The notes under the pieces were generated by a model. It saw only the letters and a program-made list of their open reading frames with translations, was not told the DNA's origin and made no database searches. 64,000 bases of DNA from Flavobacteriales bacterium (GTDB lineage Bacteria; Bacteroidota; Bacteroidia; Flavobacteriales_F; PHOS-HE28), in NCBI GenBank assembly GCA_044507815.1, contig JBIQIX010000010.1, forward strand, positions 68,431-132,430, read 5' to 3'. Of this stretch, positions 61,301 through 63,747 are shown one piece after another. Positions within the stretch are counted from its first letter, which is position 1. Each line of letters begins with the position of its first letter. The position numbers and the translations under genes were made by a program.

Positions 61301-63382
61301 TCATTTGATATGCACTTCAATAATCTTGCTTGTATCAATTCCTAAAATGTCAACCACTTTTACCATTACTTTGTATTTGCCTGCTTTTTTGTATTCGTAG
61401 GCTATGCTTGTAAATTCAAGCGTTGGATTTTTCTTGGTGCGGAAACCCTGCCATTCGTTTTCAAAAAGGTAGTTGCCCGTCCATTGCTCTTCGGTTTCGC
61501 CCGATTCGTTTTTGATTTTGATGATTTCCTTTTTGTCTTCGTAGTTGAAGTCAATTGCCCAGTAATCTATCCAGTCGTGCCAGTCTTTCGTGAGAATGGT
61601 TTTGGTGATGATTCCGTTTTTGTCTTTTTCTACTTTGATTATCTGACCGTCTTCAATTACCACTTTACTTCCTGCTCTCATTGACTGTTGCAATTCTTCA
61701 ATGTCGTCTTGGGTGTAATGGGTAACAAAGTCGGTCAGTTCGATTGTGATAGATTTGCCGTTGATTTTTTCTTTGGTGTTCAAATAGGCAACATCAAAGA
61801 ATTTTACTTGCCCTTTCTCAACCGCTCGTTTGTCAAATACATCTTTGGGTATGTATTTCAATGTAATGGAAACGCCTTTTTCTTTCAGTTCCTGAATGAA
61901 CTGGGGTGTTAAGCCCATTTCAAACTCAAAGCCCAAAACATCAACCTGCGTATAAAGATTTTTGCGGCACTCTTCAAAAATATCAACCAATCGGCTTTGT
62001 GTAACAGGAACATCTAATGGCCCAACGTGAACAAATCTGCCTGATTTTTGCCCGTGCAATGCACTATGTCCGTCAATTCTTTTGGCTTTGTAGGCTTCCA
62101 AAATTAAGTCCACATACAAATCTTCTTTGGCTTTGCGTTTGCCGTTTGTAAGGTCGTCCATAAAGAACTGCCTTTCATACTTACCTAAGTTGAGAATCTC
62201 AAATGCTCTGAAATCTTTCCCATTGGTTTGCAGTTCTCGCTGTACACCAATTAAACGCTTACGTGCAGTGTGAATAGAAAAACGTCCTAAATCGGTAGTA
62301 ATCCATTTTCTCCCTAATTTTTCTGCTACTGCTGCTGTAGTGCCACTACCACAGAAAAAGTCTGCAATCAAATCACCTTCATTTGTGGTTGATGAAATAA
62401 CCCGTTCAAGTATGGTTTCTGGTTTCTGTGTGGGATAGTTTAAGTTTTCAGTATCATCAGCTGGCTGAAGCATTGAAAGTCGCCATACATTATCGACAAC
62501 TCTTGCGTCTCTCATCTGATACATCACATTGCCTGACTCATCTCTTGCATTAATCATCTTGCCATCAACCTTCTTTCTTACAAGTTGCTTTACGGGATTA
62601 TCTCGTTTCTCTTCGATAGGTGTAAAGGTATATTTAGACTTGTCCTTTACATACCAAAAAATCGTATCCGTTGCTCTTGGGAAAACTCCCTTTCTTGTGT
62701 CGGGCATTTTATTGTAGTAATACCAATAAATTTCATTTCGGAAATTTTCAACTCCGAATATATCATCCAATAGCAACCTTAGATATGAACTTACTTTCCA
62801 ATCAATATGAACAAAAATGCTTCCATCCTTGGCCATCAAACCGTGCATTAACTTCAATCTCTCATACATCATTGAGAGATAAGATGAAATACCCTTTCCC
62901 CAAGTATCACGGTAAGCAATTTCTTCAATAATGCTTTGTTTCTTTTCGGCTGTTTCACCATTAATTTCAATGTTAAAACCAAAGTCAGCACCTACGGCAA
63001 AAGGTGGGTCAATGTAGATGAGTTTTAAACCGCCTTCTTTTTCTATTTCATCACGAATAGGGCCATTTGCTAATGAAGAAAGAATCAATTTATTATCGCC
63101 CCAAATCAATTTGTTTGTCCATCCTTTGAGTTGTCGCCCACGGGTGTCAAACATTTCAAACATATCGCCTTGCTTCTTTTCTTCTTTGCGTGGCTCGTCT
63201 ATATGCTCAATGCTATGAAAGGGTAGGGCTACATTGGTCACATCTTCCTTTCTTCCGTTCCAAAACAGGAATACATCTTCTTCGTCAGCAAAAAGTTTGT
63301 AAATGAATTCCTTTGGCAGTTTTTCACCTGCCTTTATCAGTTCAATGATTCGGTTTTTATCAGTGTCGTTTAAGTTCATCAA
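61301..63382 (-). CDS. Type III R-M Mod-like N6-adenine DNA methyltransferase (beta-class), no adjacent res
   Basis: NKLIWGDNKLILSSL...LIYIDPPFAVGADFG (motif IV, DPPF), a central variable TRD-like region, then FFCGSGTTAAVAEKLGRKWITTDL (motif I, FxGxG). Overall this matches EcoP15I-Mod-type architecture. 693 aa. AT-rich codon usage. Confidence 0.85.
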   Translation of the reverse strand: MMNLNDTDKNRIIELIKAGEKLPKEFIYKLFADEEDVFLFWNGRKEDVTNVALPFHSIEHIDEPRKEEKKQGDMFEMFDTRGRQLKGWTNKLIWGDNKLILSSLANGPIRDEIEKEGGLKLIYIDPPFAVGADFGFNIEINGETAEKKQSIIEEIAYRDTWGKGISSYLSMMYERLKLMHGLMAKDGSIFVHIDWKVSSYLRLLLDDIFGVENFRNEIYWYYYNKMPDTRKGVFPRATDTIFWYVKDKSKYTFTPIEEKRDNPVKQLVRKKVDGKMINARDESGNVMYQMRDARVVDNVWRLSMLQPADDTENLNYPTQKPETILERVISSTTNEGDLIADFFCGSGTTAAVAEKLGRKWITTDLGRFSIHTARKRLIGVQRELQTNGKDFRAFEILNLGKYERQFFMDDLTNGKRKAKEDLYVDLILEAYKAKRIDGHSALHGQKSGRFVHVGPLDVPVTQSRLVDIFEECRKNLYTQVDVLGFEFEMGLTPQFIQELKEKGVSITLKYIPKDVFDKRAVEKGQVKFFDVAYLNTKEKINGKSITIELTDFVTHYTQDDIEELQQSMRAGSKVVIEDGQIIKVEKDKNGIITKTILTKDWHDWIDYWAIDFNYEDKKEIIKIKNESGETEEQWTGNYLFENEWQGFRTKKNPTLEFTSIAYEYKKAGKYKVMVKVVDILGIDTSKIIEVHIK

Positions 63383-63747
63383 TTGTCAATTGGATTGTTT
63401 ACTATTAAATCAGGAATGTGGTTAAAGTCGCCTGCGTTCCTTGTAATTACTTCTGTGCAATGCAATAATGCTGTTGCAGCAATTATCGCATCAGCCGATT
63501 TCATATTTCTTTGCTGCCTTAGTTCAGTGGCTCTATCAATCACTTCACTTGTTATTGGCAAAATGGTAACCAATGAAAATACGGCATTGAAATATTCTTC
63601 GGCTTCTTCAGTTAAACCGTGATAGCCCAATACTTCAAGTTTGGTTAATTCAGAAACAGCCAAATCTTCCTGTTCCAATAATTCCTTTAATTGTGGAAAA
63701 TCAGGCTTTGCAGCGTACATCAATATGTTGCTATCTACTAATCTCAT
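63379..63747 (-). CDS. vapC: PIN-domain toxin, VapC family
   Basis: MRLVDSNILMY (Asp5), SADAIIAATAL and TRNAGDF acidic residues of a PIN fold. 122 aa. 4-bp overlap with the upstream small ORF, and 4-bp overlap of its stop with the methyltransferase start. Confidence 0.85.
   Translation of the reverse strand: MRLVDSNILMYAAKPDFPQLKELLEQEDLAVSELTKLEVLGYHGLTEEAEEYFNAVFSLVTILPITSEVIDRATELRQQRNMKSADAIIAATALLHCTEVITRNAGDFNHIPDLIVNNPIDN

Follow-up and report, generated by a model that had tools for sequence, protein, structure and literature searches.

The subject of this report is a 64,000-nt stretch of DNA from a Flavobacteriales bacterium (the window), near the end of which a gene for a VapC-type PIN-domain toxin lies inside a Type III restriction-modification (R-M) operon, between the genes for the restriction subunit (res) and the DNA methyltransferase (mod). 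The last ~46 residues of Res are homologous to the C-termini of the small antitoxin-like proteins which precede free-standing relatives of this PIN gene. The tail and the PIN gene together form one block which is missing from closely related R-M operons. We consider it probable that this is a mobile Type III R-M operon into which a VapC-type toxin gene and the C-terminal peptide of its antitoxin were inserted as one block. The toxin-binding peptide makes up the final ~46 residues of Res, in the same reading frame, and the operon lacks an antitoxin gene of its own; Res itself would therefore serve as the antitoxin. Toxin-antitoxin (TA) and R-M genes are often co-located, and R-M loci host embedded genes; a direct molecular link between them is rarely visible. 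Locating the missing antitoxin as a peptide fused to Res gives a concrete and cheaply testable hypothesis for how an R-M enzyme could restrain a toxin.

The res-PIN-mod operon and the tail of Res

Coordinates are positions in the window unless a comparison contig or locus (L-number) is named, and all three genes are on the (-) strand. The window contains the 3' end of res (63744..64000; the last 85 codons and the stop codon, the gene running past the window edge), the PIN gene (63379..63747, 122 aa) and mod (61301..63379, 692 aa). The same order, res, PIN and mod, is found on longer contigs identical to the window. By exact-protein look-up, identical copies of PIN and Mod were found on four to five public contigs. 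The window and L002 are 100% identical across 6001 nt, and the full-length res gene of L002 (5184-7973) encodes a protein of 929 aa with a Pfam ResIII match (2.8e-14). GAGKT, DEAH and FPDFF...ILETKG (PD...ExK) motifs are visible in the Res sequence, residues 793-840 match a TnsA-like endonuclease, and the PADLOC REase_III match is weak (7e-19). A PDB sequence search gave no match to Res. Mod has strong matches to Pfam N6_N4_Mtase (4.5e-46) and PADLOC MTase_III (2.5e-127), and in the PDB it matches EcoP15I Mod (4ZCF_A, 7e-13) and H. pylori Mod (6K0W). In Type III systems ATP-dependent cleavage needs Res-Mod complexes and unmethylated sites, and the same may hold here.

An earlier note on the window had read the locus as a small VapB-like antitoxin open reading frame (ORF), followed by vapC and by an orphan Mod-like methyltransferase gene without a restriction partner. 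Pfam and PADLOC bear out the PIN ORF (63379-63747(-)) and the Mod ORF (61301-63379(-)). A 71-aa ORF (63744-63959) can also be drawn upstream of PIN in the window, with no res behind mod. However, the small frame is open to position 64000, and on the identical longer contigs it is the C-terminal end of the 929-aa ResIII gene. Gene callers place no start at the 71-aa ORF, and Res stands upstream in every related locus. A separate small antitoxin gene beside a Res-less Mod is thus scarcely credible. Because the 929-aa ResIII gene lies directly upstream, in the order res-PIN-mod, Mod does have a restriction partner and is the methylase of a Type III system. The mod-then-res linkage which the note had found lacking on the downstream side is indeed absent there, no res following mod in the window, but res is present, on the upstream side.

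The upstream frame and the PIN gene overlap by 4 bp in an ATGA (junction CTATGAGA, 63744-63747), as had been noted before. The same 4-bp overlap had been claimed for PIN and mod. In this junction (AATTGATGAAC), however, the PIN stop codon TGA (63381-63379) and the mod start codon ATG (63379-63377) share 1 nt (TGATG). An alternative mod start, TTG at 63382, would give a 2-nt overlap with the PIN stop codon, again not 4 bp; the ATG (MNLND...) is the start common to all homologues and the one chosen by gene callers. Start/stop overlaps of this sort are commonplace in operons. In diverged relatives the res/PIN spacer is 3-12 nt and the PIN/mod junction is an ATGA or an 11-nt overlap, and where relatives lack PIN, res overlaps mod by 4 bp. 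The conserved feature is tight packing, not any specific overlap. Res and mod are on the same strand and tightly packed, in the order res-(PIN)-mod as compared to mod-res of the prototype. The nuclease and methyltransferase genes form one tightly packed same-strand unit, as the note had held, which is consistent with a single transcript and coupled translation.

The PIN protein has a Pfam PF01850 match (4.6e-14). Its acidic residues D5, E38 and D86 are invariant and D107 is nearly invariant. The AlphaFold2 model has a pLDDT of 94.7, and the best Foldseek matches are VapC toxins (7BY3_B with a TM of 0.80, then Shigella VapC, Caulobacter VapBC1 and FitB). The closest solved relative by sequence is VapC of a VapBC complex (7BY2_B, 3.4e-11). 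The predicted structure shows an intact VapC fold with the catalytic residues in it. PADLOC has no model for this PIN. In the plasmid collection merely distant VapC proteins were matched (~35%), with no near match at the DNA level, and the viral contigs contained no relative of PIN. A separate small antitoxin gene with a DNA-binding N-domain is absent from the locus, where the upstream frame is res. Genome annotation labels such a PIN an orphan VapC and misses the fused tail.

The free-standing relatives of this PIN are 31-54% identical to it, and nearly all of them are preceded by a 75-110-aa ORF that ends at the PIN start. The N-terminal halves of these upstream ORFs differ: one is Phd/YefM (L032), another is DUF2281 (L031), and three others that were scanned had no Pfam match. 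Their C-termini share a common motif, DPxxWQRExRxDRxLPGR. This antitoxin-like segment is found in Res as residues 884-929 (FVKDFGKKLSKEEAIQLIKKGADVSNFGDPVEWQKKDRTERKINGL; 63747..63884, (-) strand), with the shared motif as a conserved core (D912-P913..W916-Q917..R921..R924; 63762-63800, (-) strand). The assignment is based on a profile match, on the split between Res clusters with and without the tail, and on phmmer. Two of the free antitoxin-like ORFs align directly to Res residues 895-926 by BLASTP. A profile was built from the last 40 aa of 70 distinct free ORFs. Among 1977 six-frame fragments taken from the window and from four Res-PIN-Mod loci, it matched Res residues 895-925 alone (E 4e-10 to 1e-8; next best E 0.49), and over all searches its E-values on the Res C-terminus ranged from 1e-8 to 1e-15. 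In an independent metagenome set, outside the profile building, the motif was immediately upstream of PIN in 61 of 76 PIN loci among the matches listed. When the 46-aa tail was searched by phmmer against 1.84 billion representative proteins, 27 matches were obtained, mostly small proteins with the motif at the C-terminus. The motif lies outside every Pfam and NCBIfam match in the five free antitoxins and the Res tail which were scanned.

In solved VapBC and FitAB complexes (e.g. 2H1C, 3TND and 3ZVK), the C-terminal segment of the antitoxin binds and blocks the toxin. The variable N-domains and conserved C-terminal motif of the free ORFs fit this division of labour. By homology, a cognate toxin-binding antitoxin segment would be present at the C-terminus of Res.

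An unfused variant is found on a 720-bp contig (L181, 1-720), where a 66-aa protein with the tail is followed by PIN and then by the start of mod (MNLNDTDKTKII...). The C-terminal 38 residues of this protein are 89% identical to the Res tail, and an unknown upstream gene overlaps its start by TGATG; the contig is too short to show whether res is nearby. This variant shows that the tail segment can serve as a predicted small antitoxin. Two other small proteins, of 91 and 111 aa (L182 6001-6276 and L185 35-370), end in GADVxxFGDPxEWQKxxRxDR.

The tail and the PIN gene as one insert

Alignment of L002 with L087, by blastn and at the junctions, delimits a "tail + PIN" insert of 505 bp (46 Res codons and the PIN gene; 63380..63884, (-) strand). 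L087 carries 26 bp where the window has this insert. On either side of it the two loci are 95% identical, the left flank ending at L002 7832 (Res codon 883) and the right one starting at L002 8338 (the mod ATG). We compared the best 120 Res clusters, which are 96-100% identical to the window Res. The tail motif was present in all 33 clusters of 907-931 aa and in none of the 87 clusters of 886-901 aa, even at E<=10. Untailed Res ends shortly after ...SFQDLIxIF, and the loci examined for untailed Res had no PIN gene. That the fusion is an artefact of sequencing or of a frameshift was rejected, since 33 protein clusters have it, as do loci with Res identity as low as 74%.

The untailed loci show what else can stand at this junction. 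Res and mod may overlap directly (L087, L088 and L186), they may be separated by a Cas4-like PD-(D/E)xK gene (L089-L092), or they may enclose PtuA and PtuB, a complete Septu system (L093). In some untailed loci an OLD-family nuclease or PDC-S19/DUF3644 occupies a second slot behind mod. Slot genes, between res and mod or after mod, are located at L093 2748-5153, L089 4533-4952 and 7125-8828, and L087 10745-11794. Because a near-identical backbone holds PIN, Septu, a Cas4-like nuclease or nothing at the res/mod junction, this junction is a slot of variable content, filled here by "tail + PIN". Type III systems of this family carry defence genes embedded in them.

The presence of other nucleases in the slot (Cas4-like PD-(D/E)xK and Septu PtuB) bears on another explanation, in which the tail is a docking peptide and PIN is a working accessory nuclease of the restriction complex, cutting invader RNA or DNA. 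Although PIN would be tethered to Res by the logic of the sequence and co-translated with it, and although PIN-like domains include DNA nucleases, the nearest relatives of this small VapC-type PIN are all in classical two-gene antitoxin-toxin pairs, and in those pairs the segment homologous to the tail is part of the antitoxin. Most members of the R-M family also work without PIN. We regard a docking role as quite improbable.

A PIN profile scan of one genome per species gave 80 loci. Three close relatives (L007, L008 and L009) have the Res-PIN-Mod arrangement; the other 77, which are more distant (40-52% identity; from cyanobacteria, Bacteroidota, Chloroflexota and others), stand without Res or Mod beside them. 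A metagenome scan added at least three further close loci. Tailed Res, PIN and Mod are kept together in L007, L008, L009, L094, L097, L100, L101 and L103. The PIN and Res identities are 63% and 74% in L094, 55% and 84% in L097, and 48% and 80% in L100, respectively. In the diverged loci (L094, L097, L100, L101 and L103) the extreme C-terminus of Res reads GADV[ST]xFGDPxEWQ+xxRxDRxI[DN]. The earlier note had reasoned that a PIN-Mod adjacency unique to this genome would indicate a chance insertion; the adjacency recurs in at least nine independent loci with PIN identities of 48-98%, and by this test the reading as a chance insertion fails. Because the Res-linked PINs form a single clade in a neighbour-joining tree of 149 PINs, the data point to one fusion event. 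The ratio of nonsynonymous to synonymous substitution rates (dN/dS) is 0.09-0.18 for PIN and 0.07-0.20 for the tail; compared with L009, the Res core has 0.05, the tail 0.20, PIN 0.14 and Mod 0.09. As estimated by these ratios, the arrangement is under purifying selection. The 90%-identity PIN cluster includes two cultured carriers, Larkinella insperata and Olivibacter sitiensis, and metagenome-assembled genomes (MAGs) of several Bacteroidota families. In two Latescibacterota MAGs (L046 and L048 7570-10012) a free antitoxin-PIN pair is followed by a 72-79-aa N6_N4 methyltransferase fragment (FCGSGTT) and then by a Dcm-like C5 methylase, which is another association of this TA family with R-M genes.

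Within one clade the fusion has lasted to 48% identity in PIN and 74% in Res, with the tail under purifying selection, and it has spread over several Bacteroidota families, which argues that being fused does at least no harm. These facts count against a selfish hitch-hiker, i.e. a VapBC-type module which settled in a permissive slot and lost the N-half of its antitoxin by an incidental in-frame fusion. The tail would still neutralise PIN, a molecular step which this explanation shares with the reading of Res as antitoxin, so that these data agree with both; there would be no functional cross-talk with restriction or phage sensing, and at most the cassette would be stabilised. In favour of such a module, the res/mod junction serves generally as a slot for insertions, the operon has the form of an integron-type cassette (see below), and the unfused variant L181 exists. 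A stabilising effect of TA cassettes on integron arrays has been reported (bioRxiv 10.1101/2024.07.02.601686). On balance we find a mere hitch-hiker unlikely.

Proposed control of the toxin and comparison with known systems

For the favoured reading, in which Res serves as antitoxin, we infer binding and inhibition of PIN by the tail, an RNase activity of PIN with its target, and a trigger for its release, in the following course. The 505-bp block, consisting of the toxin gene and the cognate antitoxin peptide, would have entered the res/mod junction. PIN would be translated from the same mRNA straight after Res, through the ATGA overlap, and the Res tail would capture PIN and hold it inactive. 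This direct-binding neutralisation, as in VapBC type II systems, is predicted here from the homology of the tail. When the supply or the integrity of Res fails, free PIN would cut RNA and arrest the cell. This might happen when the cassette is lost, when transcription stops, when the tail is proteolysed, or when a phage factor acts on Res. The net effect would be that loss or sabotage of the restriction enzyme becomes costly, which would make the fusion an addiction device and possibly an abortive-infection backup. Two pay-offs are plausible, addiction to the mobile cassette and a PrrC/EcoprrI-like backup against phage interference, and they are not mutually exclusive.

Several points weigh against this reading. 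The PIN-less versions are the majority of the R-M family (87/120 clusters), and because of this majority the R-M system does not need PIN. The unfused variant L181 indicates that PIN control does not depend on a fusion to Res. A PDB profile search with the tail motif DPxEWQ+xxRxxR gave no meaningful match to solved structures. The PIN profile search of the neighbours of the L182 and L185 small proteins found no PIN of the same family beside them; the tail motif may have other partners, and one idea is that these proteins could act as decoy antitoxins. Classical antitoxins are labile and repress their own promoter, and a 929-aa helicase-nuclease without an antitoxin DNA-binding domain may behave unlike them.

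A more specific possibility is that Res is a guarded sensor, with a VapC-type toxin on its tail that is freed by a phage anti-restriction factor, by proteolysis or by the conformation of Res in failed restriction. We hold this version to be somewhat unlikely. If true, the Type III enzyme would be a two-layer device, which restricts and then aborts, and a PrrC-like guard would have been made from a TA module by fusion. PrrC is kept silent by the restriction enzyme EcoprrI (type Ic) and is released when a phage factor inhibits the enzyme (PMC1484252, PMC2610378). As in PrrC/EcoprrI, and also RloC, an RNase gene lies inside an R-M operon, here as PIN between res and mod, and the fused tail by itself suggests, by analogy, the same silencing logic. 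Unlike PrrC, which combines an ABC-ATPase with an anticodon nuclease, the protein here is a 122-aa PIN domain only, and the R-M system is of type III instead of type Ic. The proposed tether is also different, as it is a recognisable antitoxin peptide fused to Res. PIN may work like PrrC, yet it is not a member of the PrrC family.

The system resembles VapBC and FitAB in its small PIN toxin with four acidic residues and a VapC fold. It also resembles them in a putative neutralising element which lies immediately upstream, is translationally coupled, and has a family-specific C-terminal segment. Unlike VapBC and FitAB, it lacks both a separate antitoxin gene and an N-domain for DNA binding or dimerisation; the segment is the ~46 C-terminal residues of a restriction subunit. 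Matelska et al. (2017, PMC5499597) described PIN toxins transcriptionally linked to type I R-M subunits, sometimes without an antitoxin gene. A different mode of toxin control was proposed there for the cases in which the antitoxin is missing, and the authors stated that a direct interaction between TA and R-M components had not been shown. Those type I cases were described as not conserved between close relatives and had no recognised neutraliser, whereas the arrangement here is in a type III system, is clade-wide, and has the antitoxin fused to Res.

Payne et al. (2024, bioRxiv 10.1101/2024.01.29.577857) reported that multigene immune systems, namely Hma, BREX, DISARM and type I R-M, can have other defence genes embedded in them. 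The res/mod junction is similar in being a variable slot with alternative genes (PIN, Septu PtuAB, a Cas4-like nuclease or nothing), but its host is a type III R-M system and the embedded gene is physically linked to the host by the fused peptide. As in EcoP15I and EcoP1I, Mod is of the beta-class N6_N4 type with a central variable target-recognition domain, and Res combines an SF2 helicase with a C-terminal PD-(D/E)xK nuclease. Unlike in EcoP15I and EcoP1I, res precedes mod, a third gene lies between them, and Res has a C-terminal extension and lacks a sequence-level PDB match. Toxin or defence genes embedded in R-M loci are thus known already, and the variant here is the antitoxin peptide fused to the restriction subunit. 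A literature search for a Res-antitoxin fusion or for PIN within a type III R-M operon gave nothing specific; its coverage was incomplete, and this absence does not prove novelty.

The family supplies natural controls, namely near-identical Res and Mod without the tail and PIN, the unfused variant, and loci with Septu or Cas4-like genes in the slot. The fusion also suggests that a large protein of an unrelated kind can acquire a short antitoxin tail, which current genome annotation misses.

The integron-type cassette and the mod gene

The GC content is 0.37-0.40 over the three genes and rises to ~0.60 within ~350-450 bp past the mod stop codon, in agreement with the high-GC DNA that the earlier note had placed soon after mod. 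In L002 the low-GC island has the order tyrosine recombinase (with host-like GC), Lnu(H)-like gene and res-PIN-mod. Together with 320 bp upstream and ~365 bp downstream, the R-M unit is found again, with identical ends, in seven unrelated flanks. Its left end begins with GTTGTGTGC (GTTGTGTGCAAGCG), and its right end is ...CCAAAAC/GTT (...GCGCCAAAAC/GTT), where the slash marks the boundary, with unrelated DNA beyond. The R-M cassette is 5.9 kb long, with three genes, its own upstream region, and GTT core sites at both ends.

The non-coding 3' module end (60936..61300, (-) strand) contains an attC-like imperfect hairpin (~60950-61064) and ends at GTT 60946-60944, beyond which other genomes are no longer similar and the host DNA begins. 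This block is 93-96% conserved in L008, L087, L089, L101 and L186. Hairpin-forming elements of ~110 bp end both the lnu and the R-M cassettes (L002 4753-4861 and 10653-10767); their central sequence is shared and their arms differ. Predicted folds of the single-stranded DNA gave bulged long-range stems in both, with shuffle z-scores of -2.4/-2.8 for element A and -1.7/-0.9 for element B. By sequence comparison, the hairpin arms vary between cassettes in a compensatory way. In L186 (4579-5700) the order is a divergent recombinase, a cassette of one gene with a hairpin of this kind, and a res-mod cassette.

The L186 recombinase passes the NF040815 "tyrosine recombinase/integron integrase" model (240 vs. 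a cut-off of 220) and falls below TIGR02249 (221 vs. 265). The L002 recombinase, which is on the same strand as the operon, scored 174 bits on the integron-integrase model, below the cut-off of 265. The whole operon appears to behave as an integron-type cassette, and the low-GC island is no random insertion. We call it integron-type and not a proven integron because the recombinases are below the IntI-specific threshold. TA and defence cassettes are known integron cargo (bioRxiv 10.1101/2024.07.02.601686). The operon resembles chromosomal-integron cassettes in its GTT core sites, its 3' attC-like hairpin and the adjacent Xer/integron-integrase-type tyrosine recombinases. It differs from them in its length of 5.9 kb, its three genes and own upstream region, its Bacteroidota host, and recombinases below the IntI-specific cut-off. 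The Lnu(H)-like lincosamide nucleotidyltransferase gene (L002 3962-4732, beyond the window edge) matches its NCBIfam model with 1.9e-136 and 453 bits, below the exception cut-off of 540. Because the first cassette of the island encodes this protein, an antibiotic-resistance-type gene travels beside the R-M cassette. A tRNA scan near the island border found none, and an Rfam scan of L002 found nothing but a chance snoRNA match.

Within Mod, residues ~198-313 (62441..62788, (-) strand) form a hypervariable target-recognition region, as judged by locus-to-locus identity. Between related loci this region is 0-54% identical, compared to 90-100% in the flanking parts of Mod and 98-99% in Res. The pattern looks like target-recognition-domain swapping, as would be expected in an active, diversifying Type III system. 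At the C-terminus of Mod, residues 655-691 (61301-61415) have a weak match to Pfam Y_Y_Y (a beta-sandwich; 5.7e-4, below the cut-off), and the Mod of L097 lacks the last ~100 residues.

An ORF of 120 aa downstream of mod (60942-61304) is doubtful as a gene, since it is of odd composition and runs across both the hairpin and the non-coding end of the cassette, which is conserved. It has an ATGA overlap with the mod stop codon, exactly where PDC-S19/DUF3644 begins in relatives, and is probably no gene. A direct repeat of ~53 bp (91-100% in two adjoining blocks) is found at 61215-61268, downstream of mod, and at L002 5074-5126, upstream of res. Both copies are inside the cassette and are conserved in related loci, and they might be a shared regulatory or recombination sequence.

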